Virus record (IMG/VR): IMGVR_UViG_3300015207_000030 | Location: 1 to 23,780 of that record | Length of the DNA: 23,780 bases | Direction: 5' to 3' (one strand) | Origin: a virus | Lineage: Duplodnaviria > Heunggongvirae > Uroviricota > Caudoviricetes | Part shown: one piece after another, positions 420 through 23,779 of the stretch | How the letters are laid out: every line of letters starts with the position of its first letter | Position numbering within the stretch: position 1 is the stretch's first letter | Made by a program: the position numbers and the translations under genes | The notes under the pieces: model-generated | What the model was told of the DNA's origin: nothing | The model's database searches: none | The model's input: the letters and a program-made list of their open reading frames with translations, nothing else

Positions 420-872
420 ATGAAAAAACTGTACTTAGCTTACGGGAGCAATCTGAACACGGAGCAAATGCGCTTCCGCTGCCCGGGTGCAAAGCCCGTC
501 GGTACGGCGGTGATACGCAATTACGAGCTGCTGTTCAAGGGCTCGCGGACGGGCGCGTACCTCACGATAGAGCCGAAGCGCGGCGGCAAAGTTCCCGTTG
601 CGGTGTGGGAGGTAAGCGCCGAGAACGAACGGGCACTCGACCGTTACGAGGGCTTCCCGGCGTTCTACTACAAAAAGGATATGAACGTCAATGTCAGGCT
701 CCCTGACGGCACGGCCGAACGCCGAGCGGCTTTCGTGTACGTTATGCACGAGGAGCGTCCGCTCGGTGTGCCGACGGGAGCATACGTCGAATGCTGCCGC
801 GAGGGCTACGGGGAATTCGGCTTTGACGAACGGTTTATTGATAATGCAATCGAAAGGAGCGTGAATGTATGA
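420..872 (+). CDS. Gamma-glutamyl cyclotransferase-like protein (AIG2/GGCT family)
   Basis: 150 aa; N-terminal LYLAYGSNL motif (YGSN signature of AIG2/GGCT), later VAVWEV and LDRYEGFPAFYYKK segments typical of the fold; RBS AAAGGTGG about 7 nt upstream of ATG 420. Confidence 0.75.
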   Translation: MKKLYLAYGSNLNTEQMRFRCPGAKPVGTAVIRNYELLFKGSRTGAYLTIEPKRGGKVPVAVWEVSAENERALDRYEGFPAFYYKKDMNVNVRLPDGTAERRAAFVYVMHEERPLGVPTGAYVECCREGYGEFGFDERFIDNAIERSVNV

Positions 873-1072
873 ATAACAAGCACAGTGAGCGGCTTGGCGT
901 TGAATTCTGCCCGAAATGCGGCAAAGCGATAAGCGGCTATCCCGCAGTCTCGCGCGTCGACGGTTCGCCGATATGCTCCGACTGCGGTACCCGCGAGGCT
1001 TTGGAGAGCATTGGAGCGTGCGCCGCAGAGCAGGACAGGATCATCGAGCTGATACACAGGAATAGCCGTTGA
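869..1072 (+). CDS. Small zinc-ribbon protein (CxxC...CxxC)
   Basis: 67 aa with CPKCG and CSDCG pairs; start overlaps the stop of the GGCT-like gene (ATGA), suggesting translational coupling. Confidence 0.55.
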   Translation: MNNKHSERLGVEFCPKCGKAISGYPAVSRVDGSPICSDCGTREALESIGACAAEQDRIIELIHRNSR

Positions 1073-1080
1073 TATTCGTT

Positions 1081-1200
1081 TTGTGCAAATCCAACAATAT
1101 CACAATCCGATATTTGTGCACGTTTTTTGCGAAAAATGTAACGAATGTAACGAATGTAACGAACGAAGTGTGCTATAATTAAAATGGCAACAGAATGACC
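1081..1200. repeat. Copy A of a ~120 bp promoter-like direct repeat (copy B at 2839..2959)
   Basis: Aligns by eye with 2839..2959 at high identity. Contains TTGTGCA twice, an imperfect inverted repeat (CAACAATATC / GATATTTGTG), three perfect tandem 9-mers ATGTAACGA (1136..1162) and an extended -10 TGcTATAAT (1171..1179). Confidence 0.75.
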
Positions 1201-1224
1201 GTTCCGAACAAACGGCGGATAAAT

Positions 1225-1260
1225 AAAGCAACGGCAGCTCATTAACTGCCGTTGCTTTGT
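1225..1260 (-). terminator. Intrinsic terminator hairpin downstream of vapC; may also stop + strand transcripts from repeat A
   Basis: Perfect stem GCAACGGCAG (1228..1237) / CTGCCGTTGC (1246..1255) with 8 nt loop; A-tract on + strand upstream gives a U-tract on the minus-strand transcript; TTTGT follows on + strand. Confidence 0.6.
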
Positions 1261-1294
1261 ATATGGCACTTCCTTTTAAGAGTTCGTCGGACGT

Positions 1295-1699
1295 TCAAAG
1301 CGTTTCAAGAAAACTGCCGGGTTTGATCGCGGGGATATCGCTTTCCTCAAAATCGCGCGTGTTTTGGGTGATGATGTATTTGCACGAATTACGCTTTGCC
1401 GTGAGCATTTGAACGGAATCCTCAAAATCCCGCGCTTTAAGCCGTGCTGCTCCCAGCGTGTCTGCGGCTTTGAGATCGACAACGTCAAATATTGCCGCCA
1501 GCTTTATCACAAGATCGTCGGTTTTGTCGGGAGTAAGCTCGCGGCGGAGAATATACACGATATTCGCAATAGACAACGCGGAAACGATACCGTTTATCTG
1601 TCTTGTCTCGCACAGCTTCCATACCTCTGCGGACTGCTCAAAGCCTTGACGGCGTGAAAGCACATCTATCAGAATGTTTGTGTCAATCAAGACCTTCAT
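1295..1699 (-). CDS. vapC: PIN-domain toxin, VapC family
   Basis: 134 aa; N-terminal MKVLIDTNILID with the conserved acidic residue, plus DFEDS and IITQNTRDF segments typical of PIN nucleases; overlaps the upstream antitoxin gene by 17 nt. Confidence 0.8.
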   Translation of the reverse strand: MKVLIDTNILIDVLSRRQGFEQSAEVWKLCETRQINGIVSALSIANIVYILRRELTPDKTDDLVIKLAAIFDVVDLKAADTLGAARLKARDFEDSVQMLTAKRNSCKYIITQNTRDFEESDIPAIKPGSFLETL

Positions 1700-1916
1700 G
1701 CCGCATTACCTTCTCCTCGCGCATTTTTTTGTAATCATAATCGTTTTTTAGAACGCCCGTCAGCTCGTCGGTCAATGATGAAACGGTCTTTTCACGCGAA
1801 ATCATTCTTGCGACCTCTTCGCCGTTTTTGGTGATCCGGATTTCTTCGTTTGACTGCACCAGCTTCAGATATTTTCCGAAGTTGTTCTGCATTTCCGTTG
1901 CGGATACTGTTAACAT
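1683..1916 (-). CDS. Phd/YefM-family antitoxin
   Basis: 77 aa; N-terminal VSATEMQNNFGKYLKLV...ITKNGEEVARMIS pattern of Phd/YefM antitoxins; GGAGG RBS (complement of 1925..1930) about 8 nt upstream of the start. Confidence 0.75.
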   Translation of the reverse strand: MLTVSATEMQNNFGKYLKLVQSNEEIRITKNGEEVARMISREKTVSSLTDELTGVLKNDYDYKKMREEKVMRHEGLD

Positions 1917-1937
1917 AATAAATTCCTCCTTTGCATA

Positions 1938-1978
1938 TTAGCTAATTATATTATAGCTTATTTTAGCTAATTTGTCAA
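1938..1978 (-). promoter_or_regulatory. Consensus sigma-A-type promoter of the phd-vapC operon with two TTAGCTAA palindromic operator candidates
   Basis: On the minus strand: TTGACA (1978..1973), 17 nt spacer, TATAAT (1955..1950), both perfect consensus. The 8 bp palindrome TTAGCTAA occurs inside the spacer (1963..1970) and just downstream of the -10 (1938..1945). Confidence 0.6.
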
Positions 1979-2172
1979 GGGGAAAGTTAAGGAAAAAATA
2001 AGCTATGCCGTATAAAGCAAAGCGCACCTGCAATTTTCCGTGCTGTCCGAAAAAGGTACTGTGACGCCCCCGCGGGGGAGACTGCGGGCTCGTCGACCCC
2101 GAATTGCACGCAGTGACAGGCGAAAAAAAGGGGTCACTTTAATTGAAAAAGGTTGAAAGGAAGGTATAGGAT

Positions 2173-2823
2173 ATGCCGGGAAAAAGGAAAGCGGCGCAAA
2201 CAAATTCATTAGGTATGCAGAGCGGCAGCGGACAGGCGATTTTCTCTCTGCAAGCCGGAACGCCTATTTTTGTCAAGACTGCCGACGTGTGCTCGGCAAC
2301 GGGCAAAACCAATCAGTGGATAGGACAGCTGACTTCACAAGGGGTTATTCACAAATGCAGAACAAACCACGGTCAGCTGTACAGTCTTTTTGATATGATG
2401 CGGGCATACTGCGCATACCTTGAAGAACGCGCGAAAAAGGACGATGAGGATATCTGCCTGCTTGAGCTGCGAAAAAAACAAGCCGAAACCAAACTGAAAG
2501 AATCCAAGGCTGCTGTCGCGGAACTTGAGGCAGCCGAGTTTCAAGGAAAAATGCACCGCTCGGAGGACGTGCGCGCAATGACCGCCGATCTGTTGTATTA
2601 CGTTCGCGGTTCGCTGCTGGCGCTCGCGGGAAGATGCGCGGCAGACTGCGCCGCGTCGGCTGATCCTGCGGAGGTACAGAAGATCATAGAACGGGAGGTT
2701 TTCGCGATACTTAAAGACCTCTCCGAATACAAGTATGACAGCAAACGTTACGACGAGCTAGTCCGCGAACGCATGAAACGCAGTTCGGACACGGAGCTTT
2801 CCGATTTTGACGATGAAGATTGA
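2173..2823 (+). CDS. Terminase small subunit, lambda Nu1-like (winged HTH)
   Basis: 216 aa; N-terminal segment (VKTADVCSATGKTNQWIGQLTSQGVI...GQLYSLFDMMRAYCAYLEERAK) parallels the lambda Nu1 N-terminus as I recall it (TIQNW..QG...LYD...Y..R); coiled-coil middle, acidic C-terminus; sits upstream of the large terminase. Confidence 0.55.
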   Translation: MPGKRKAAQTNSLGMQSGSGQAIFSLQAGTPIFVKTADVCSATGKTNQWIGQLTSQGVIHKCRTNHGQLYSLFDMMRAYCAYLEERAKKDDEDICLLELRKKQAETKLKESKAAVAELEAAEFQGKMHRSEDVRAMTADLLYYVRGSLLALAGRCAADCAASADPAEVQKIIEREVFAILKDLSEYKYDSKRYDELVRERMKRSSDTELSDFDDED

Positions 2824-12785: not shown

Positions 12786-14213
12786 ATGCTCCAACATGGT
12801 ATAAACACATTTAAGGACGATACAGGCTCGGTGGCGGTGCAGGTCGCGGCGTGCGGTATCCCGTTCTTTATCGGCGCATGGCCGTGTCATACAGGCAAGG
12901 GCTTTGCGGGTAAGCCGCAGTACTGTACGAGCTTTGACGAGGCGGCGGAGCTGGGCGGGTATTCGTCCGAGTGGCGCTATGAAAACGGCTCTCCGAAATG
13001 GAATTTGTGTCAGGCGGCGTATGCGCACTTTAAGCTCGCGGGAATGAGCCCCGCGATTTTTTACAACATTTTTGACCCCAAAACGCACAGAAGGGCGGTT
13101 GAGGCGGGTAATTATCCCGTTGAAGAACATACCGTTAAGCTGCCGCTTGACGCGCTGCGGAACGGAAACCTTGTCGTTAAGTCGGCGGACGCGGAGGACG
13201 CGCTTGTCGAAAACGTTGACTACGAGGCGTATTATAACTCCGAAAATCTGTGCGTGGAGCTGCTTGAGGGCAGCGCGGCGTATAACGCGGATTCACTTAC
13301 GGTCGCGTATGACGCAGCCGACCCGTCGCTTATTACCGCCGAGGACGTTGAAATGGCTGTTGAAGCTGTTGAAATGTGCTACAGCGTTATCGGTATAGTT
13401 CCCGATCTGCTGTGCGCTCCCGGGTGGTCGGCGAACCCGACCGTCGCGGCGGTAATGGCGGCGAAAGCTCCGTCGATCAACGGGCTTTTCCGCGCAAAGG
13501 CGGTAGTGGATATTGACGCGGCAGTGGTTACCGAATACGGCGCGGTTCTGCAGTACAAGAACGACAACGGCTATACCTCCGAGGATATGGTCGTATGCTG
13601 GCCTATGGTAAAGAACGGCGATTATACGTTCGACCTCTCGGTCATTGCGTGCGGGCTTATGGCAAAGGTCGATTCGGGAAACGCGAACTGTCCGTATGAA
13701 TCGCCGTCCAATAAGGGCGTGCCTATTACAGGCGCTGTCAACGCAAGAGGTGAGGAGATAACCGTTTCGATCGCGCAGGCGGATATCCTTACCGTAACGG
13801 ACGGTATCGTTACCGTGCTCAACAACGGCGGCTGGAGCTTGTGGGGAAACTACCTCGGCTGCTACCCCAAAACGAGCGACGTCGCGAAAATGTTCATCTG
13901 CACCAACAGGACGCAGGACTGGATATGCAATACGTTCATCAAGACGTATTGGCAGTATCTGGATAAGCCGCTTACGCCGCCGCTTCGCGACGCGATAATC
14001 AACAGCTTCAACAGCTGGCTGAACGGATTGACAGCAGAGGGCAAGCTGTACGGCGGCGAACTGGAGTATATATCTGAGCTCAACCCCGTTACACAGCTTA
14101 CGAACGGTATGATAAGACTGGATACATTGGCGGCGTCGCCCATACCTGCGCAGCGCATAGATATGCACGTAGCGTACAGCGTGGATATGCTCGAATCCGC
14201 GTTCAGCTCATAA
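12786..14213 (+). CDS. Contractile tail sheath protein
   Basis: 475 aa behind RBS GAGGAGGAGGG; size and position directly upstream of tube, chaperone and tape measure genes as in PBSX/Mu/P2-type tail modules. Confidence 0.75.
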   Translation: MLQHGINTFKDDTGSVAVQVAACGIPFFIGAWPCHTGKGFAGKPQYCTSFDEAAELGGYSSEWRYENGSPKWNLCQAAYAHFKLAGMSPAIFYNIFDPKTHRRAVEAGNYPVEEHTVKLPLDALRNGNLVVKSADAEDALVENVDYEAYYNSENLCVELLEGSAAYNADSLTVAYDAADPSLITAEDVEMAVEAVEMCYSVIGIVPDLLCAPGWSANPTVAAVMAAKAPSINGLFRAKAVVDIDAAVVTEYGAVLQYKNDNGYTSEDMVVCWPMVKNGDYTFDLSVIACGLMAKVDSGNANCPYESPSNKGVPITGAVNARGEEITVSIAQADILTVTDGIVTVLNNGGWSLWGNYLGCYPKTSDVAKMFICTNRTQDWICNTFIKTYWQYLDKPLTPPLRDAIINSFNSWLNGLTAEGKLYGGELEYISELNPVTQLTNGMIRLDTLAASPIPAQRIDMHVAYSVDMLESAFSS

Positions 14214-14228: not shown

Positions 14229-14756
14229 ATGAGCAGAGAAATAGAGGGTACTATTGCCGCGTATGTTTACGAGAACGGCGTAAACTTTCTGGGTCTGGCA
14301 AAGGTTGATATGCCGGACATTTCGTTCAAAACGTTCACATCGAGCGGACTGGGAATGTGCGGAGACGTGGAGCACGGAGCGCTGTGTCAATTCCAGCCCA
14401 TGAAAATGACCTTGCATTTCCGCGATACCAACACGGCATTTTACGCACTCAGCGATCAGAGGATACATCAGCTTACGCTGGAGGTCGCGAAACAGGTTCA
14501 CGAATACCAAGCGGGAGAAATTCCCGTCACAGGGGTCAAATATGTTGTGGATTTCGAGCCGCTTAAGACAACGGGCGGCAGCATAGAGCCCGCAACGCCG
14601 CAGAATGTTACTGCGGAGGGCTCCGTGTCTATGTTTAAGGAATTTATCAACGGAATTCTTGAACGTCATATTGACGTAACAAAATATATCTACATCGGTC
14701 ACGACGGCGTAGACCGCGCCGCGCCGATACGCAAGGCACTGAATATGGCGTACTGA
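14229..14756 (+). CDS. Tail tube protein
   Basis: 175 aa directly after the sheath gene with RBS AAAAGGAGGG; synteny-based. Confidence 0.65.
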   Translation: MSREIEGTIAAYVYENGVNFLGLAKVDMPDISFKTFTSSGLGMCGDVEHGALCQFQPMKMTLHFRDTNTAFYALSDQRIHQLTLEVAKQVHEYQAGEIPVTGVKYVVDFEPLKTTGGSIEPATPQNVTAEGSVSMFKEFINGILERHIDVTKYIYIGHDGVDRAAPIRKALNMAY

Positions 14757-14819: not shown

Positions 14820-15221
14820 ATGGATAATGAAGAGATTTTGGGCGGCGAGCTTACCGACGAGGAAAACAAGGCGGTCGACGACGCTGCAGGGAAGATCAGA
14901 AACGACGTAATGACGCCCGACGGCGTTTGGAAGTGCGAGCTGTCAAAGCCGATCACACACAACGGCATTGAATACAGCGAGCTTACGTTCAACTTCGGGA
15001 AGCTCACGGGCGCGGACGCTGTTAATATCGAGGACGAGCTTTCCGCAAAGGGAAAACCCGTGTTTATGAACGAGGCGGCTAACAGTTCGTATCTTATTTT
15101 AATGGCGGCGAGGGCGTGCGAGGAGCATATAAGCTCCGACGCGTTCAAGCGTATGAGCATTGTCGATTTTAACAGGATAAAGAACAAGGCGCGGCTTTTT
15201 TTATTGGGCGTTGCGGTGTAA
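14820..15221 (+). CDS. Tail assembly chaperone (XkdN-like), zero-frame product
   Basis: 133 aa between tube and tape measure; RBS AAAGGAG; ends with the slippery run described in the next feature. Confidence 0.6.
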   Translation: MDNEEILGGELTDEENKAVDDAAGKIRNDVMTPDGVWKCELSKPITHNGIEYSELTFNFGKLTGADAVNIEDELSAKGKPVFMNEAANSSYLILMAARACEEHISSDAFKRMSIVDFNRIKNKARLFLLGVAV

Positions 15222-15370
15222 GTCATTTGCGCCGCGACGTGCTGGCGCTGGCGCGAAACGGCTACGCGCCGATACAGTACTGGCTCGGTCTGCCGCTGCT
15301 TAATATACAGCGCTGGGCAAAAGAGCACAACAAACTGATAGACGAACTTAAAAGGAGTGAGGACGTATAG
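14820..15370 (+). CDS. Tail assembly chaperone, predicted -1 frameshift extended product
   Basis: Slippery heptamer T_TTT_TTA at 15197..15203 in the zero frame; the -1 frame is open from there to TAG at 15368..15370 (56 codons, my hand translation), ending 17 nt before the tape measure start. Confidence 0.45.
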
Positions 15371-15387
15371 CAAACAAGGAGTATCAG

Positions 15388-18300
15388 ATGCTGTTCAGGC
15401 TTGGCGCGCAGCTGGGCGAGAACTTCAACGGAACGTTCTCCTCCGCGCAGAGAGTTCTGCAGACAACGCAAAAGGAAATCCAAGCGCTCAACAAAACGCA
15501 GTCGGAGATCGGCGCTTATCAAAAGCAGCAGCAGAGCATTGAAAAGACGAACGAGAAACTCGAACTGTACAAAAAGCAGCTCGACAATGTTCAAAAGGAA
15601 ATGGCGGAGAGCGGCGAGCACAGTTCAGCGCTCGCGAACAGAGAACTGGAACTGAAAAAACGCATAGAGGATACCAAAGCTGCGTTATCCGATAAGAACC
15701 AAAAGCTGTCGCAGATGAGTGAGGAGCTTAGTAAAGCGGGCGTTGATGTCAATAATCTTACCTCGGAGACCCTGAAATGTCAAGGCGAGATCGCCAAATT
15801 GTCAAAGCAGGAAGAAATCGCGGCGGCAGAGGCGGCGCGGTTCGGTGACGAGGGCGCTACGGCGTTTGAGGCTGTCGGCTCCGCGCTTGTTTCGGCGGGC
15901 ATTGCGGCGGCACTCAATAAGATAGCGGACGAATACCGCGCGTGTGTTGAAGCGTCAATGGAATTCGGCTACACAATATCTACCGTTGAAGCACTTTCGG
16001 GTGCTTCGGTAACGGAAATGCAGACGCTCACCGCGACCGCGAAAGAGCTGGGCGCGACGACCGCGTTTACCGCAAATCAGTCCGCACAGGCCATGACATA
16101 CATGGGAATGGCAGGCTGGAACGCGGGGCAAATGGTGTCGGGAATGGACGGCGTTCTGAACCTCGCGGCGGCAAGCGGCGAGGGCTTGGCGAACGTCTCG
16201 GATATCGTTACCGACAATCTTACCGCGTTCGGTCTGAAAGCCTCGGATACCGCACACTTCGCGGACGTTCTCGCGGCGGCGGCTACAAATTCCAATACTT
16301 CTGTCGGAATCATGGGCGAAACGTTCAAGGGTTCGGCGTCTGTCGCGGGAGCGCTCGGCTATAGCATTGAAGATGTCGCGGTTATGACAGGTCTTATGGC
16401 AAACGCGGGTGTTAAGGGCTCAATCGCGAATACCGCACTGAAGAACACATTTAACGGACTGCTGAGCGGTGTTACACTTACGGGTACTGCGCTTGGCGAA
16501 GTTGAATTTACAGCAGTGAACGCGGACGGAACGATGAAGGGTTTAAGCGGCACCGTCGACGAACTGCGTGGGTACTTCGATCAAATGACCGAATCAGAAC
16601 GCGTAAATAACGCTATGGCTCTTGCGGGACAGCGCGGTTATAACGGCTTGCTTGCAATACTCAATGCCACCGATGAGGACTATCAAAGTTTGACCGACAG
16701 CATAAATAACTGTACGGGTTCTGCGCAGAAGATGGCAAATATCAAGCTGGATAATCTGCATGGCGATGTTACGCTGCTTGATTCCGCGACCGATGGTCTG
16801 AGAATGACTATCGGCGGTCTGTATGAGGACGAGCTGAGACAGGCAGCACAGATCGGTACAGAGATCATTACCAAGATCAACGAGTTCTGCGAGCAAAATC
16901 CCGTGGCGGTCAAGGCAATAATGGCAGGTGCTGCCGCGTTAGGCGGCTTGGCATTGGCTTATGGAACGGTAAATACTGTTAAAAAAGTGAAAAACGCGCT
17001 TGATACGCTTGGTATAACTCTGACAGCGGCACATACCGCAGGAACAACAAAAATGACTTTTGCTGAGAGTGCTCACGCTTTTGCAACAACAGTTGCCGCA
17101 AAAGCACAAGCGGGTTGGAACGCTGTGATGGCGGCCGCACCGTTAATGATATTTGTTGGAGCTGTTGTTGCTGCAACGGCTGGAATTGCAGCTTTAAGAG
17201 AAGCGTTCAAAGTTGAGACTATTGAAATGCAAACGCTCAACACTGCGACACAAGAACAGCGCGATAAGGTATCGCAGCTTTCCGAGGAATATGAAAAAGC
17301 TTGTGAGATTTACGGTGAAACGGACACCAGAACACGCGCGCTGAAATACGACCTCGACGAGGCTACGGCAGCTATTGACGATCAATCTTTTTCGGTAAAG
17401 GATCTGTACGCCGAAATAGATACGTTACACAGCTCGACGAGCGGCTTGCTTGAGGACTGCCGCAGCAGTACGGCAAGCATTGACGAGCAGTATGACAGTG
17501 CCATGATACTTTCGGCTAAGCTGCGCGAGTTAGCGTCGAGCTCGGACAGATCGGCAGAATCACAGGCAAAAATGGAGCCGATCGTGCGGCGGCTTAATGA
17601 AATGTATCCCGGGTTGGGGCTGAGTGTTGAAAATGCAGCCGACAAAATGGGCTTGCTGAACGGGCAGATCGAACAGGCAGCAAAGTCGCAGAGCTTACTA
17701 GCAAAATATAAGAGCGCCGATGATAATCTTCCGGAACTGTACGCAAAACAACTGCAGCTTCAGGAGGCTGTCGAAAAAGCGGAGATCGCACAAGTCAGAG
17801 CGGGAAAAGAATTCACCGACGCGGCGGGAGACAATTTCTTTACCGTCGCCGCCGGTATGATAACCGGCAGGGCGCAGGATACCGAAAAAGCCTATGATGA
17901 GGCGAGTGAAAAGGTGCGTACCGCACGGGGAGATCTGGCAGCCGTAGAGGCGCAGATACGCGAGTGTGAGGCAGCAATGGAAGAATACGGCGGCGTTGTT
18001 TCGGGAACTTCGGAGGAGACCGTTTCGGCGTTCGATGCGGTATCTATCGCCGTGAACGAAGTCACCGCTGAAACCGAGGAACTGCTGAAAGCCTACAACG
18101 ACGCGTATCAAGCGGCATACGACAGTGTTTCGGGGCAGTACGCGCTTTGGGACAAGGCTGCGGAGGTCTCGGCGGTGAGCGTCGGCACGATCAACGAAAA
18201 CCTCGAACAGCAAGCGGCTTATTGGGATAGCTACAACACCAATCTGAACTTGCTGCTCGGCAGAGCGGGCGATATAGACGGATTAAAAGACGTTCTCGCG

Positions 18301-19014
18301 GCGTTCGCGGATGGCAGCACGGACAGCGTGAACGCCGTCGCGGGTATGGCGTCCGCGTCCGACGAGGATCTGAAGCGTATGATTGAGAACTGGCAGATGG
18401 TTCAAGCGGAGCAAAACAAGACCGCCGAGGCGCTTGCCGATACAAAGGTCGACTTCAAGGAGCGGATGGACGGTATCGCGGACGATATGAACAACGTTAT
18501 CAAGGATATGAACTTAAGCGCCGAGGCAAAAACGGCGGCGGAGGAAACCATTAAGGCATACGCCGAGGCTATCGCGGCGGGCAAGGGCTCGGTCGCTGAA
18601 GCGGCGGATATCGTCGCGGCGGCGGTCGGGAACGCTCTCGGGATATCTCTCGCCGCAGATAACGCTGTGACCCCGGGCGGCGAATACGTCAGGGGATTTC
18701 ACAAGATAGACGCGTATGCCGACGGCACGGACTACGCAAAAAGCGGATACGCGATAGTCGGCGAGGAGGGTCCCGAGCTTGTTAAATTCGGCGGCGGTGA
18801 AAAGGTATTCCCAAACGATAAAACAATGGCTATTTTAGGCAATTCCGCGTCAAACACAGGCGGACAGACGGTAATAAATATCTCGCCGCAATTCACGATA
18901 AACGGCAGCGCCGACGCGAGTATGGTCGAGGAGGCTTCCGAGCGGCTGATTGAGCTTGTCATGGACGGACTGCGCGAGGCGGGTATCGACGCACGGAGAG
19001 GGGCGTATGTATGA
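15388..19014 (+). CDS. Tail tape measure protein
   Basis: 1208 aa; N-terminal coiled coil; central Gly/Ala-rich block (MTYMGMAGWNAGQMVSGMDGVLNLAAASGEGLANVSDIVTDNLTAFGL) typical of the tape-measure core; two hydrophobic segments; RBS AAGGAG. Confidence 0.85.
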   Translation: MLFRLGAQLGENFNGTFSSAQRVLQTTQKEIQALNKTQSEIGAYQKQQQSIEKTNEKLELYKKQLDNVQKEMAESGEHSSALANRELELKKRIEDTKAALSDKNQKLSQMSEELSKAGVDVNNLTSETLKCQGEIAKLSKQEEIAAAEAARFGDEGATAFEAVGSALVSAGIAAALNKIADEYRACVEASMEFGYTISTVEALSGASVTEMQTLTATAKELGATTAFTANQSAQAMTYMGMAGWNAGQMVSGMDGVLNLAAASGEGLANVSDIVTDNLTAFGLKASDTAHFADVLAAAATNSNTSVGIMGETFKGSASVAGALGYSIEDVAVMTGLMANAGVKGSIANTALKNTFNGLLSGVTLTGTALGEVEFTAVNADGTMKGLSGTVDELRGYFDQMTESERVNNAMALAGQRGYNGLLAILNATDEDYQSLTDSINNCTGSAQKMANIKLDNLHGDVTLLDSATDGLRMTIGGLYEDELRQAAQIGTEIITKINEFCEQNPVAVKAIMAGAAALGGLALAYGTVNTVKKVKNALDTLGITLTAAHTAGTTKMTFAESAHAFATTVAAKAQAGWNAVMAAAPLMIFVGAVVAATAGIAALREAFKVETIEMQTLNTATQEQRDKVSQLSEEYEKACEIYGETDTRTRALKYDLDEATAAIDDQSFSVKDLYAEIDTLHSSTSGLLEDCRSSTASIDEQYDSAMILSAKLRELASSSDRSAESQAKMEPIVRRLNEMYPGLGLSVENAADKMGLLNGQIEQAAKSQSLLAKYKSADDNLPELYAKQLQLQEAVEKAEIAQVRAGKEFTDAAGDNFFTVAAGMITGRAQDTEKAYDEASEKVRTARGDLAAVEAQIRECEAAMEEYGGVVSGTSEETVSAFDAVSIAVNEVTAETEELLKAYNDAYQAAYDSVSGQYALWDKAAEVSAVSVGTINENLEQQAAYWDSYNTNLNLLLGRAGDIDGLKDVLAAFADGSTDSVNAVAGMASASDEDLKRMIENWQMVQAEQNKTAEALADTKVDFKERMDGIADDMNNVIKDMNLSAEAKTAAEETIKAYAEAIAAGKGSVAEAADIVAAAVGNALGISLAADNAVTPGGEYVRGFHKIDAYADGTDYAKSGYAIVGEEGPELVKFGGGEKVFPNDKTMAILGNSASNTGGQTVINISPQFTINGSADASMVEEASERLIELVMDGLREAGIDARRGAYV

Positions 19015-19220
19015 CTTACACAACGGTTCAAGGGGATATGTGGGACAGCATTGCCTATAAATTGTACGGCGATACAAAGTTTAAGGACGTGCTTATTGAG
19101 GCGAATACCGAGTACAGGCGGATATACATTTTTTCGGCGGGGATCGTTCTGGAAGTGCCGGAGGTTGAAACGCGCGTCACGCCCGACGATCTTCCACCGT
19201 GGAAGAGGGTGAGCGGATGA
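19011..19220 (+). CDS. LysM-like tail protein (XkdP / P2 gpX-like)
   Basis: 69 aa; TVQGDMWDSIAYKLYGD...EAN pattern of LysM; position after the tape measure gene. Confidence 0.6.
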   Translation: MTYTTVQGDMWDSIAYKLYGDTKFKDVLIEANTEYRRIYIFSAGIVLEVPEVETRVTPDDLPPWKRVSG

Positions 19221-21022
19221 GCGACGCAAACAAAGCGCGCAGCGCCTCGGCGCAGGTTGTTTTCAACGGCGTTGATATAAGCGTGTATGTGAACAGCGAC
19301 CTTATATCGCTCACATACACTGACAATGAGGAGGACGAAGCGGACGATCTTCAGATAAAGGTGCTTGACCGCGATAGGAACTGGCTGCAAAAATGGCTGG
19401 ATACGCTTGTTTCCGATGCCGCGATCGGCAGCAGCTCCGAAAATACTGCGGGCTCTGTCGGCGCGGACGGTTATTCAGGTTCGGGCGGCGGTTCGGGCAG
19501 CTCCGGGGGAACGTCCTATAAAGTAACGGCGACAAGCGGCGTAAACGTCCGCACCAATACCACGTCCAAAGGCAAGATACTCGGCAAGCTGCCCTACGGC
19601 ACTGTTGTTTCGGTAAATAAATTTTCAGATGGCTGGGCGCAGATAAGGTACACGGGCAAAACGGCGTGGATAAAAGGAGAAAATCTTAAGCTCGTCGGCG
19701 GTTCGGGAAATTTCGCAAAGAAATCGGCAAAGGTCGAAAAGGGCGGTTTTTCGGGCGACAGAAACAGCGACTGGGCGATAGGCGACGAGGTAATCGCGAC
19801 GGGTACGCCGCAATATTCGTCCTACGGTCTGGGCGAGCCGGGCGCTCCCGTGAGCGGTCACAAGGGCAAGGTGTCGCATCTGAACCTCGGCGAGGGTATT
19901 CCGTACCCCGTTCACGTCGATTATCTGGGCTGGTTCGCGGAAAATCAGGTGCAGCGTGTAAACGGCGAGGACAAGCAGCCGGCGGAACGATCGGCGTGCA
20001 AGGGCTTAAAAATATCGGCGGCTATCGTCCGTAAGAATTGGAACGCGGACGGAAACGACGAAGTCCTCGACTGCGGACAGTTCGAGCTGGATAACATTAC
20101 GGTTGACGGTCCGCCGAATACCGTAACGATAAAGGCGACCTCGCTGTCGTATTCCAACTCCGTAAGACAGACCGAGAAAAGCAAGGCGTGGGAGAATGTC
20201 ACGCTTTCTCAGATCATCGAGTTTATAACGAAAAAAAGCGGCATGGGATATATGTACATCAGCGCGAAAGACCCCGTGTATTCGCACGTTGAGCAGTACC
20301 GGCAGAGCGATATCGCGTTTTTAAGCAAGCTCTGTCATAACGTAGGGTGTTCTCTCAAGGTCACGAGCAATATCATCGTTGTTTTCGACCAAGCGGAATT
20401 CGACCAAAACCCTGAGATCAGAACGATAAAATTCGGCAGAGATTACACGAAATACCGTTTGACAACCAACGAGAACGACAGCTACACAAGCTGCCGCGTT
20501 TACTGCACCGCTCCCGACGGCGGGGTCGTTTCCGCGACCGTTTTTTCTGATGATTACAAAGAGGACGGTAACAACGACCGTCGACTGGAGATACAGCAGA
20601 ACGTCGGCAGCATTGCCGAGGCGGAGGAGCTCGCCTATAAAATGCTCCGTCTGCATAATAAATACGAGTTTGAGGCGTCGTTTACTTTCCCCGGAGACCC
20701 CGAGCTTACGGCGGGGAGCGTTGTCGCGCTTGAGGATTTCGGCGCTTGGAACGGCAGATATGTCATTAAACAGGCGAAGCATACGCTTTCGCATTCGGGG
20801 CACACAACGCAGATAAGTCTGCGGAGAGCATTGCCGCCCGCGCCGTCGGAGGTTCACGGGGAAACGGACGGCAAGCCCGCCTATGACGTTGACGAGCTCG
20901 CGCTGCAGGTCATTCGCGGAGATTGGGATAACGGAGACGCTCGTTACGACAAGCTGACGGCGGCGGGTTATGACTACGATGCCGTACAGCGCCGCGTCAA
21001 CGAGCTGTTGGGAATATATTAA
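19217..21022 (+). CDS. Baseplate hub / late-control-D-like tail protein carrying an SH3b domain and a C-terminal CW_7-like cell-wall-binding motif
   Basis: ATG 19217 overlaps the LysM stop; Gly/Ser linker then YKVTATSGVNVRTNTTSKGKILGKLPYGTVVSVNKFSDGWAQIRYTGKTAWIK (SH3b-like, about 19517..19697); C-terminal ELALQVIRGDWDNGDARYDKLTAAGYDYDAVQRRVNELLG matches the Cpl-7-type CW_7 repeat as I recall it. Confidence 0.65.
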   Translation: MSDANKARSASAQVVFNGVDISVYVNSDLISLTYTDNEEDEADDLQIKVLDRDRNWLQKWLDTLVSDAAIGSSSENTAGSVGADGYSGSGGGSGSSGGTSYKVTATSGVNVRTNTTSKGKILGKLPYGTVVSVNKFSDGWAQIRYTGKTAWIKGENLKLVGGSGNFAKKSAKVEKGGFSGDRNSDWAIGDEVIATGTPQYSSYGLGEPGAPVSGHKGKVSHLNLGEGIPYPVHVDYLGWFAENQVQRVNGEDKQPAERSACKGLKISAAIVRKNWNADGNDEVLDCGQFELDNITVDGPPNTVTIKATSLSYSNSVRQTEKSKAWENVTLSQIIEFITKKSGMGYMYISAKDPVYSHVEQYRQSDIAFLSKLCHNVGCSLKVTSNIIVVFDQAEFDQNPEIRTIKFGRDYTKYRLTTNENDSYTSCRVYCTAPDGGVVSATVFSDDYKEDGNNDRRLEIQQNVGSIAEAEELAYKMLRLHNKYEFEASFTFPGDPELTAGSVVALEDFGAWNGRYVIKQAKHTLSHSGHTTQISLRRALPPAPSEVHGETDGKPAYDVDELALQVIRGDWDNGDARYDKLTAAGYDYDAVQRRVNELLGIY

Positions 21023-23073: not shown

Positions 23074-23779
23074 GTTTATCGACAGCGGAGACGATCTGCT
23101 GCAGGGCTTTCCGAGCGCGCTTTCACGCGACGGGGACAAGCGCAGACTTGCCGAGAGCATTGCGGACGAGCTTGCGCTGACCGCCTCCGACACCGACAAG
23201 GCTTTGATATTCCCGCGTATCGACGAGCTGCCGGAAGCGGTTCTCGATATGCTGGCGTATGACCTTAAGGTCGATTGGTACGAATATTCAGCGCCGATAC
23301 AAAATAAACGGAACGCTATCAAGGAATGCATTCCGGTGCATAGGCACAAGGGCACGAAGTACGCGGTCGAAACGGCGGTGCACAGCCTTTACGACAAAGC
23401 CGAGGTTTGCGAGTGGTTCGAGTACGGCGGCGAGCCGTTTCACTTTAAAATTAAGGTTTTCGGCTCGTCGAGCGGTAATATCAAGCTGGTCTATCAGAAG
23501 ATACAATACGCGAAAAATCTGCGCTCCGTGCTTGACAGCGTTGCGTTCGTGCATATTCCCGAGCGTGATCTGACGGCGTTTTTCGGCGCGGCGAATTCCT
23601 CGTTTTACAAGAGAACGGGCGTTTCGGTGCGATCTGACGACGATACGATATTCTCCGTGCCGACTTTGTCATGCGCGATTGGGATCAAGGTCTCCGCGAG
23701 AGTAAAGCGCATTTCTCTGCGGCTCGAATACGCCAAGCCGTCGCCGCCGAAAAAAATCACCGTAAAGGCGAACGTCGGA
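23066..23779 (+). CDS. Phage tail protein I-like (P2 gpI family), 3' end beyond the window
   Basis: ATG 23066 overlapping the J-like stop; my hand translation is open to the window end (not in the supplied track because no stop is reached); LDMLAYDLKVDWYEY...HRHKGTKYAVETAV resembles the gpI family core. Confidence 0.55.
   Translation, partial: MSKFIDSGDDLLQGFPSALSRDGDKRRLAESIADELALTASDTDKALIFPRIDELPEAVLDMLAYDLKVDWYEYSAPIQNKRNAIKECIPVHRHKGTKYAVETAVHSLYDKAEVCEWFEYGGEPFHFKIKVFGSSSGNIKLVYQKIQYAKNLRSVLDSVAFVHIPERDLTAFFGAANSSFYKRTGVSVRSDDDTIFSVPTLSCAIGIKVSARVKRISLRLEYAKPSPPKKITVKANVG

Follow-up and report, generated by a model that had tools for sequence, protein, structure and literature searches.

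Introduction

Horizontally acquired DNA can be compositionally atypical and then ameliorates. The stretch of DNA analysed here (hereafter the window: 23,780 nucleotides, IMG/VR record IMGVR_UViG_3300015207_000030) agrees with this concept in that a local deficit of G/C-ending codons (low GC3), in a tail tape measure gene, coincides with a segment of different history. It departs from simple amelioration on two counts: the deficit is kept in two lineages at near-saturated synonymous divergence, and it is restricted to the third positions of GC-rich coding sequence.

In the modular or mosaic view of phage genomes, tail genes show intragenic mosaicism that arises as phages recombine at conserved boundaries (cf. 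Pedulla et al. 2003, as cited in PMC1796659). The segment described below is a case of such ordinary phage gene mosaicism. As is usual for it, relatedness switches sharply along the gene, short conserved sequences flank the variable blocks, near-identical phages (here the relatives L082 and L083) differ by whole blocks, and the blocks are collinear and functionally equivalent. Unlike in usual mosaicism, the exchanged unit is a sub-domain, a membrane hairpin, inside a tape measure gene that belongs to uncultured prophages of gut Clostridia, and it has a strong third-position anomaly without a traceable source.

Two tape measure proteins offer further comparisons. That of phage PhiR68.2, of the lambda-like kind, has a divergent internal region (aa 300-400) tied to inner-membrane receptor use and defence susceptibility (ManYZ, SNIPE; PMC13190303). 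The window likewise has a tape measure block of about 100 aa that differs sharply from otherwise close relatives, and in both cases it is with its tape measure protein that the virion meets the cytoplasmic membrane. However, PhiR68.2 belongs with siphoviruses of E. coli for which there are phenotypic data, whereas the window is from a contractile-tailed phage of a Gram-positive-type host, known from its sequence, for which we can only infer a functional consequence. In phage T4, a putative transmembrane segment of the tape measure protein gp29 is linked to channel formation and to binding by the exclusion protein Imm, and predicted membrane segments are reported to be common in tape measure proteins across myoviruses and siphoviruses (bioRxiv 10.64898/2026.03.06.709160). 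Likened by description, T4 too is a contractile-tailed phage with a predicted mid-protein membrane segment, but gp29 is described with one putative transmembrane region where the window has two hydrophobic helices 60 residues apart.

Results

The tape measure gene and its neighbours

The features of the locus are collected in table 1. Residues 216-413 of the long tail protein match the Pfam family PhageMin_Tail (PF10145, E = 4.6e-41, 141.3 bits against a cut-off of 33.2), and the best match of the gene to PHROG tape measure families has E = 1.4e-107. The gene order runs as for a tape measure gene: sheath, tube and chaperone genes stand before it, tail X and hub genes after it. A frameshift would extend the chaperone, which has a T7 slippery run at 15196-15202 and from there an open -1 frame to about 15367. 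Judged by these matches, the product is a phage tail tape measure protein with a PhageMin_Tail/TP901-type core. At least 21 contigs carry exactly this protein. On L087, a contig assembled from a separate Logan run, the gene is identical to that of the window at the nucleotide level.

Table 1. Features of the tape measure gene and its surroundings (positions in the window).
Feature	Position	Strand	Basis or remark
Sheath gene	12786-14213		Upstream of tape measure gene
Tube gene	14229-14756		Upstream of tape measure gene
Chaperone gene	14820-15221		Upstream of tape measure gene
Tail tape measure protein gene (1208 aa), contractile-tailed prophage	15388..19014	+	PF10145, PHROG match, gene order
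Two further allele blocks, aa 74-153 and aa 154-200	15607..15987	+	Block identity matrices; informative sites
Conserved PhageMin_Tail core, aa 216-413	16033..16626	+	PF10145; GC3 slightly above gene mean family-wide
Conserved upstream anchor, aa 495-505, TKINEFCEQNP	16870..16902	+	Allele divergence starts here
Allelic (mosaic) block, codons ~505-651: TM1, linker, TM2, ~45 further aa	~16900..17340	+	Relatives' identities, informative sites, nucleotide alignment
Predicted transmembrane helix 1 (TM1), aa 506-524, VAVKAIMAGAAALGGLALA	16903..16959	+	Kyte-Doolittle 19-residue mean 1.87
GC3 dip core, codons 524-644	16957..17319	+	Change-point search and permutation test; amino-acid-controlled z
Predicted transmembrane helix 2 (TM2), aa 585-603, PLMIFVGAVVAATAGIAAL	17140..17196	+	Kyte-Doolittle 19-residue mean 2.19
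Conserved downstream anchor, aa 652-660, LKYDLDEAT	17341..17367	+	Window rejoins common type; nucleotide alignment
Next variable block, aa 656-870	17353..17997	+	Window resembles L081/L083/L002
Tail X gene	19011-19220		Downstream of tape measure gene
Hub gene	19217-21022		Downstream of tape measure gene

A sharp dip in GC3 within the gene

The initial annotation had noted, by eye, a shift towards A/T-ending codons over nt 16550-17800. The shift is real and highly significant, but about 360 nt hold the bulk of it and not 1250 nt, so that the original interval was about three times too wide. In the best fit of the change-point search, GC3 is 0.32 in the dip core and 0.63 in the remainder of the tape measure gene (Fisher p = 1.4e-10), with a log-likelihood ratio of about 20-21 against a maximum of 12.9 among 300 codon-order permutations, which rules out chance as the cause. 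The dip is deepest in codons 524-603 (nt 16957-17196). Taken whole, the wider interval has a GC3 of 0.507 against 0.648 (p = 2.6e-6); without the dip core, its shoulders have 0.58 (p = 0.049) and are barely separable from the remainder. GC3 is unusually high (0.69-0.76) in the 3' third of the gene, and this accounts for some of the contrast seen by eye.

The same segment stands out at the scale of the window. GC3 in 100-codon windows of the other 21 genes has a mean of 0.648 (sd 0.055) and a minimum of 0.51, and the 14 lowest such windows of the entire 23.8 kb all start at 16768-17158; no gene of the window has a lower value than the dip. The codon-adaptation index, with the other genes as reference, gives a concordant picture: its six lowest 100-codon windows lie at 16888-17038 (0.51-0.55), against a mean of 0.728 and a minimum of 0.603 outside the dip. 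Counts also bear out the codons that had been named. GCA and GCT make up 18 of the 26 Ala codons in the dip (32% elsewhere), ACA and ACT 11 of the 16 Thr codons (31% elsewhere), while GTT accounts for 6/10 Val, TTA for 2/7 Leu and CAA for 3/5 Gln; outside, GCG (0.55), ACG (0.44) and CTG (0.38) prevail.

Ala, Thr, Gly and Val are abundant in the segment. Amino-acid composition is nevertheless ruled out as the cause, because with amino acids controlled for, 34 G/C-ending codons are observed where 73 are expected (z = -7.6). By region, the controlled score is z = -5.1 for aa 524-584 and z = -4.2 for aa 585-603. TM1, encoded by the first 19 codons of the allelic block, has a normal GC3 in the window (0.63).

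The dip lies in an exchangeable membrane-hairpin cassette

Breakpoints of the allelic block were taken from the nucleotide alignment. Up to codon ~505 nucleotides are near-identical in all five relatives and then diverge abruptly. The dip falls within this block, which covers both predicted transmembrane helices, as the initial annotation had suspected of its segment. The two-helix architecture is conserved across the alleles of the cassette: from hydropathy calculation only, the predicted position of TM1 is identical in all 5 close relatives and that of TM2 is the same in the A and the B alleles. An Ala/Thr-rich linker of 60 residues separates the helices, and the protein alignment of the cassette is collinear, with no insertions.

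The history of the cassette differs from that of its flanks. Relatives with flanks 80-88% identical in amino acids are only about 50% identical in the cassette; P0003-P0010, for example, have flanks 82-84% identical and a block at 47-49%, no better than homologues with 55% flanks. In nucleotides, identity between the window and L083/L002 is 0.55-0.59 in the block and about 0.80 in the flanks. Informative sites in aa 505-612 divide 94 against 26 (heterogeneity p = 6e-13), and the nearest relative switches along the gene for three parent pairs (informative-site chi-square p = 6e-13, 1.4e-24 and 2e-25). Recombination at the cassette is seen directly within the family in L082 and L083, since their conserved blocks are 94-97% identical in nucleotides whereas their cassettes are 55-62% identical; synonymous third-position identity is 0.46 in the cassette and 0.87-0.99 in the flanks. 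The window itself has no near-identical parent.

Other parts of the gene behave in the same way. The window resembles L082/L083 in aa 74-153 (informative sites 22 against 52) and L081/L002 in aa 154-200 (24 against 9). In aa 656-870, L082 has a different allele (44-54% in nucleotides), with a synonymous third-position identity to L083 of 0.51 against 0.87-0.99 in the flanks. Exchangeable blocks make up a patchwork in the tape measure gene of this phage group.

The A-type allele, its carriers and the search for a donor

The hairpin of the window is a rare allele, here called A-type. A alleles are only 0.38-0.53 identical to all others, which makes A an outlier lineage, while B alleles are at least as close to the wider family as their own flanks are (0.68 against 0.56 for L083 and L015). 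Among the matches listed (120 of about 7,800 homologues), the only other A-type carriers are P0002/L081 and P0011/L082, at 71-75%. P0024/L085 was rejected as a fourth carrier, its sequence being identical to that of L081. Both the allele (80% aa identity over codons 524-612) and the low GC3 (0.30) recur in L081, the only independent relative among those matches to have the two; there, too, the dip (codons 502-619) falls together with the allele block (505-612). The protein allele of L082 is similar, but its GC3 is 0.56. The unusual codon usage is best taken as a property of the A-type allele lineage and not of the position in the gene.

The window and L081 have a GC3 of about 0.25-0.30 in the block although their synonymous sites are near-randomised: the correlation of strong/weak states at these sites is 0.20 in the block and 0.24 in the flanks. 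Any transfer would not be recent, since the two alleles have diverged about as much as the flanks. Because the low GC3 common to both has outlasted the near-randomisation of their synonymous sites, a single old import followed by neutral drift does not fit; with neutral amelioration, a single shared import would require an ancestral GC3 near zero.

Searches of 5.8 billion clustered proteins, 1.84 billion representatives, viral and metagenome contigs and GenBank phages turned up no donor, no closer A-type allele and no A-type carrier in a low-GC background. With the segment alone as query, the 5.8-billion-protein collection returned a single fragment, of 228 aa and with an allele of B-like type, and not even the parent protein, probably owing to composition filtering. 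An exhaustive HMMER search of the 1.84 billion representatives gave a best match of 47% identity outside the window's own cluster, and since every full-length match was a protein of tape measure size, no donor emerged. DNA scans with the segment yielded no confirmed relative among viral contigs and a single locus (42% identity) among metagenome contigs. Against GenBank phages, tblastn of the block had no match, and blastn of the entire gene matched in the conserved core alone (query nt 597-1029). An extremely AT-rich donor genome is unlikely, as positions 1 and 2 of the segment's codons are GC-rich (GC2 0.50-0.54), which is not what such a donor would encode. The relatives found do not establish the direction of transfer.

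Composition across the homologue family

Family composition statistics were computed on 53 non-redundant homologues, which generally do not share the composition of the window. The difference in GC3 between segment and flanks has a mean of -0.057 (sd 0.073), while the window, at -0.31, is the extreme, 3.4 sd out. Given this disparity, the dip is not a conserved positional feature. Some members have a whole-gene GC3 of 0.22-0.45, and strong low-GC3 blocks occur elsewhere in the gene in L006, L026, L014 and L032.

Discussion

The dip is probably the core of an interchangeable hairpin cassette, of an A-type lineage that came from a lower-GC3 background and entered the present gene by recombination. 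The short conserved sequences that bound the cassette would be the sites of exchange among related prophages of gut Oscillospiraceae and other Clostridia. It would be most economical to suppose that the A-type lineage evolved in a lower-GC3 genetic background before it entered this gene, and the family members of low whole-gene GC3 mean that such backgrounds are available. The import was probably separate in the lineages of the window and of L081, since the synonymous sites are saturated. Several observations count against import: no donor emerged, the copies of the window and of L081 have diverged as much as their flanks, L082 has a similar allele at a GC3 of 0.56, TM1 has a normal GC3, codon positions 1 and 2 of the segment are GC-rich, and the variable blocks of the family lean to AT3 alone. 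The initial proposal that a segment acquired by recombination explains the composition withstands both of the conditions named for its refutation, since the dip is significant and homologues in general lack it. The mosaic reading is largely right as to the distinct history of the block, but no donor was found and recombination alone may not explain the GC3; that foreign origin by itself accounts for the composition is not proven.

It is rather unlikely, though worth weighing, that the low GC3 arose in place. Divergent, rare alleles would drift to the equilibrium set by AT-biased mutation, and only in the conserved parts would a higher GC3 be upheld; with few homologous recombination partners, rare alleles would escape GC-biased gene conversion, or codon selection on them would be weaker. 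The cassette would still recombine, but its composition would say nothing about foreign origin. The family offers several patterns of this kind. Its conserved core stands at +0.03 to +0.085 in the GC3 profile; with amino acids controlled for, aa 201-480 are at +0.040 per codon (z > 2 in 12 of the 53 homologues, z < -2 in none) and the variable blocks aa 524-603 and 761-880 at -0.044 to -0.069 (z < -2 in 6-13 of the 53, z > 2 in 0-1). Centred GC3 rises with column conservation (slope 0.10, p = 4e-14), two lineages keep low GC3 with near-randomised synonymous sites, and dips occur at the cassette in several unrelated allele lineages (L084, L009/L015, L086, L006 and L012). However, the size of the effect is at odds with this process. 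The family-wide deficit is just -0.05 to -0.07, against -0.32 to -0.47 in the window (amino-acid-controlled), and the regression on conservation predicts -0.016 for the window's segment where -0.277 is observed. L082, L083 and L002 have alleles as divergent as that of the window at a GC3 of 0.47-0.56, a range that also holds for its nearest B-allele relatives in the same codons, and GC-biased conversion in this phage group is an assumption.

A broader form of this idea, which we also regard as improbable, is that the GC3 landscape records a process and not ancestry, variable cassettes, of which the hairpin would be the extreme in the window, being systematically AT3-enriched because divergent alleles escape the GC-biased conversion and codon selection to which the recombining conserved parts are subject, or because slow translation of the hairpin is selected. 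Variable blocks are AT3-enriched in 6-13 of the 53 homologues and GC3-enriched in 0-1, an asymmetry that would not result from random exchange between phages of differing GC. The near-absence of GC3-enriched variable blocks and the persistence in two lineages hint that low GC3 is maintained and is not the fading mark of an import.

Selection on translation as such seems doubtful. Locally rare A/T-ending codons would slow translation of the hairpin and so give the tail assembly chaperone time to capture it ahead of aggregation or of insertion into the membrane of the producing cell. The linker and TM2 are indeed where the dip is deepest, codon adaptation is at its lowest for the whole window at the hairpin, a weak hairpin deficit runs across the family, and two diverged lineages maintain the low GC3. 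Yet most homologues lack the dip, including L082 with its similar protein allele and the B-allele relatives, TM1 is of normal composition in the window, and the non-membrane variable block aa 761-880 has an equal family-wide deficit. The synonymous sites of the segment are no more conserved than those of the flanks (0.54 against 0.52-0.63).

This lack of excess synonymous conservation leads us to reject a nucleotide-level constraint on the segment, and it also bears on a hidden overlapping element (a gene in another frame or on the opposite strand, a structured RNA, an internal promoter or a target of hypermutation), which is very unlikely. One imperfect inverted repeat of 20 nt (17083-17102 / 17152-17171) and one weak promoter-like match (16948-16977) could be read in its favour, but promoter-like and terminator-like counts equal the shuffle expectation and an Rfam search of the whole window matched no family. 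There is no other ORF above 65 aa inside the dip core, and longer ORFs overlap 16850-17400 only at its edges. Nor does the segment look like the target of a diversity-generating retroelement: there is no template/variable repeat pair, the segment recurs within the gene only as short chance-level matches, the proteins scanned in the window have no reverse-transcriptase domain, and the alignment is free of insertions. Finally, the prospect that the dip is an artefact of chance, amino-acid composition or chimeric assembly is close to nil: the source is a metagenome-assembled genome and the segment is of skewed amino-acid content, but the permutation and amino-acid-controlled tests are decisive, and the identical protein on other contigs and the identical Logan gene effectively refute a chimera.

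A possible consequence of the A-type cassette is that the ejected tape measure protein interacts differently with the membrane of the host, or with exclusion or defence proteins bound to it. The apparent maintenance of low GC3 would have some interest for studies of compositional evolution, but opens no long-standing question. In this large family of gut Clostridia prophages, the hairpin behaves as a swappable cassette with deep allelic lineages. Its importance is modest and derives from the place of the tape measure protein, which, as recent work shows, contacts the cytoplasmic membrane and is a target of exclusion and of defence proteins (PMC13190303; bioRxiv 10.64898/2026.03.06.709160). Exchange of the cassette could therefore alter entry requirements or evade exclusion.

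Third-position GC content drops in the membrane-segment region

The codon-usage anomaly of the tape measure gene is real, sharply localised and lies inside a demonstrable recombination cassette. In sliding windows along the gene, third-position GC content (GC3) is about 0.6-0.7 before it drops to 0.32, and it later climbs back. A change-point search delimited a low-GC3 segment of 0.32, against 0.63 in the rest of the gene, with a log-likelihood ratio of about 20-21 (maximum of 12.9 in 300 permutations), which excludes chance. Amino-acid composition is excluded as well: when the expectation was drawn from the window's own per-amino-acid codon usage, the segment had 34 codons ending in G or C versus 73 expected (z = -7.6). 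The codon-adaptation index has its minimum at the same location, and 100-codon windows in the other 21 genes never fall below a GC3 of 0.51 (mean 0.648, s.d. 0.055). Hence, the dip proposed in the initial annotation is significant, and the A/T-ending codons named there account for the deficit. The extent given, 16550-17800, was about three times too wide. The whole interval has a GC3 of 0.507 versus 0.648, but it is significant only because it contains the core; the shoulders alone have a GC3 of 0.58 (p = 0.049). An unusually high GC3 in the gene's 3' third (0.69 overall, maximum 0.76, amino-acid-controlled z = +3.6; 0.53-0.66 in relatives over the same residues) exaggerates the visual contrast.

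Coordinates of the features discussed
Feature	Position (nt)	Strand	Details
GGACT/AIG2-like gene	420-872		
Low-GC patch	~1000-2250		GC 0.42-0.47, below rest of window
PIN-domain gene	1295-1699	-	PF13470, E = 1.5e-19
Small ORF	1683-1916	-	77 aa; upstream of PIN gene and overlapping it
Small terminase gene	2173-2823		
Tail assembly chaperone gene	14820-15221		
-1 frame region	15101-15367		Open until ~15367
TTTTTTT run	15196-15202		Close to 3' end of chaperone gene
MAxKEYxM leader	15367-15390		
Tape measure gene	15388-19014	+	1208 aa; Pfam PhageMin_Tail at aa 216-413
Candidate second replaced block	~16330-16630	+	aa ~314-413, in PhageMin_Tail core
Low-GC3 segment	16957-17319	+	Codons 524-644
High-GC3 3' third	18030-19011	+	aa 881-1208
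gpD-like baseplate hub gene	19217-21022		SH3 domain aa 113-164; C-terminal CW_7 cell-wall-binding repeat aa 565-604
Listed ORF	23259-23573		GC1 0.31, GC2 0.66; no family match

Hydropathy predicts two strong hydrophobic helices (aa 506-524 and 585-603) separated by an Ala- and Thr-rich linker of 60 residues. The dip begins where the first helix ends, takes in the linker and the second helix and continues for about 40 residues, and is deepest in the linker (z = -5.1) and second helix (z = -4.2, both amino-acid-controlled). It thus spans the predicted membrane segments, as had been guessed.

The dip lies in a block with a separate history

The block at codons ~505-651 has a history apart from that of its flanks, and its status as a mosaic cassette, as first suspected, is well established. 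Proteins 82-84% identical to the window's in the flanks are only 47-49% identical in the block, no better than homologues with 55% identity in the flanks, and only two (P0002 and P0011) reach 72-75% there. The block versions of the window and of the homologous genes L081 and L082 (A alleles) match all others at 0.38-0.53, whereas those of L083 and L002 (B alleles) match the wider family at least as well in the block as in the flanks (0.68 and 0.56, respectively, for L083 and L015). Judged from these identities, A is the outlier allele and B the common one. The cleanest demonstration of the separate history is the comparison of L082 with L083: nucleotide identity is 94-97% in conserved blocks (synonymous identity 0.87-0.99), but 55-62% in this block (synonymous identity 0.46). 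Identity between the window and these close relatives is a uniform 75-88% over the 14 kb module. In the bins over the block it falls to 66-67% for B-allele relatives, the lowest of the module for L083; for L002, the aa 74-153 block, at 67%, is as low.

The alleles part immediately downstream of EFCEQNP (codon ~505). At LKYDLDEAT (codon ~651) the window returns to the common type; L081 does so sooner (codon ~612). These breakpoints coincide with short conserved stretches. Both helices occupy identical positions, gap-free, in A and B alleles, making the cassettes equivalent. By its codon-level alignment, the whole gene is a patchwork: blocks aa 74-153, 154-200, ~505-651 and 656-870 each ally the window with different relatives, and informative sites are heterogeneous (p = 6e-13 to 2e-25).

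In a further stretch, aa ~314-413, the window shares only 65-73% nucleotide identity with each of the four close relatives; among themselves, those four share 90-97% over the wider conserved block aa 201-493. The stretch may be another replaced block, particular to the window's lineage. Its mildly low GC3 (0.45-0.57) accounts for the 5' shoulder of the interval initially proposed.

Origin of the low GC3

Low GC3 partly tracks the allele. L081 has the same allele (80% amino-acid identity over codons 524-612) with a GC3 of 0.30, and its own strongest dip (codons 502-619) matches its own allele block. L082, with a related protein allele, has a GC3 of 0.56, and B-allele relatives have 0.47-0.56 at the segment.

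Recombination was also initially proposed as the cause of the composition, and here the odds are about even between foreign origin and in-place explanations. Against a simple import, no donor was found in any collection searched, and low GC3 was retained despite divergence: the block copies of the window and L081 have diverged as far as their flanks (strong/weak-state correlation at synonymous sites of 0.20, compared with 0.24 in the flanks), but at shared residues both still have a GC3 of about 0.25. Had one import been shared and then decayed neutrally toward 0.63, the ancestral GC3 would have had to be near zero. Hence, either the two lineages drew separately on an unsampled pool of low-GC3 alleles or low GC3 was maintained. 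Separate draws are plausible, because the downstream breakpoints differ and exchange is rampant. Simple import fits poorly with the GC-rich first and second codon positions of the segment, and with an asymmetry across the family, whose variable blocks are weakly AT3-enriched and almost never GC3-enriched.

The dip is mostly not a conserved property of this position in the gene. We compared the DNA of about 60 full-length homologous genes from genome collections and of selected close relatives. Among 53 non-redundant aligned homologues, GC3 in the segment minus that of the flanks averages -0.057 (s.d. 0.073), and the window is the extreme (-0.31, 3.4 s.d. out); homologues do not generally share its composition. 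There is a weak family-wide trend: the conserved core is slightly GC3-enriched, and the two variable regions (aa 521-603 and aa 761-880) show an amino-acid-controlled deficit of 0.04-0.07 per codon. A regression on column conservation predicts -0.016 for the window segment versus -0.277 observed. Strong low-GC3 blocks occur at other variable mid-gene positions in L006, L026, L014 and L032, and at this block in a few homologues whose alleles there are unrelated (L084, L009/L015, L086). Equally strong localised blocks were seen in L006 (own codons 695-906), L026 (659-908) and L084 (511-688); log-likelihood ratios for such blocks, mostly in the variable mid-gene, are 18-24.

Other candidates failed. 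An assembly chimera is excluded because at least 21 contigs carry the identical protein and a contig of a separate Logan run assembly has a nucleotide-identical gene. An overlapping ORF is excluded by an ORF check, and repeat-templated hypervariation was also rejected. The segment has no Rfam match and no excess synonymous conservation, and its promoter-like and terminator-like sites do not exceed shuffle expectation.

The surrounding module

The window comes from an uncultured Oscillospiraceae genome contig of a gut catalogue (L001) and represents the module of a contractile-tailed prophage for DNA packaging, head and tail. It encodes small and large terminase, lambda-type portal, protease and E-type capsid, then sheath, FII-type tube, chaperone, tape measure, tail X, gpD-like hub and two baseplate wedge proteins (one gpW/gp25-like, one gpJ-like); P2 gpU was added from the called genes of the identical locus L087. 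The T-run of the chaperone gene and the open -1 frame past it would be the expected programmed frameshift to an extended chaperone, by analogy with P2 E/E' and lambda G/GT. MAxKEYxM is the tape measure N-terminus in many family members. In the window its first codon is ATA (Ile), the ORF begins seven codons further on, at ATG 15388, and AAGGAG within the leader lies at Shine-Dalgarno distance from it; this ATG may be the true start across the whole family. The SH3 domain of the hub and its CW_7 repeat, the latter also matching endolysin families, suggest a wall-binding, possibly lytic, tail tip. Between the GGACT/AIG2-like and small terminase genes, the PIN gene and 77-aa ORF, within the low-GC patch, resemble a toxin-antitoxin pair that entered as a moron. 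The listed ORF with an atypical codon-position profile is unlikely to be a genuine gene in its listed frame. One homologue, L011 (CAVIFG010000007.1), is labelled Escherichia coli and carries a Clostridia-type prophage tail module (tape measure protein 56% identical); the source assembly was probably mis-binned or mislabelled.

Possible consequences of cassette exchange

The cassette is a fresh example of well-known phage mosaicism. Tape measure proteins leave the virion by ejection and have been implicated in forming the passage for DNA across the cytoplasmic membrane. Those of myoviruses and siphoviruses are reported commonly to have predicted membrane segments, and that of T4 is bound by the T4 exclusion protein Imm (bioRxiv 10.64898/2026.03.06.709160). 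A ManYZ-dependent lambda-like clade is highly susceptible to the SNIPE nuclease, except one phage whose tape measure protein is divergent over ~100 aa, and escape mutations map to the tape measure protein too (PMC13190303). Given these roles in the cited phages, exchange of the hairpin cassette could change entry or allow escape from exclusion.
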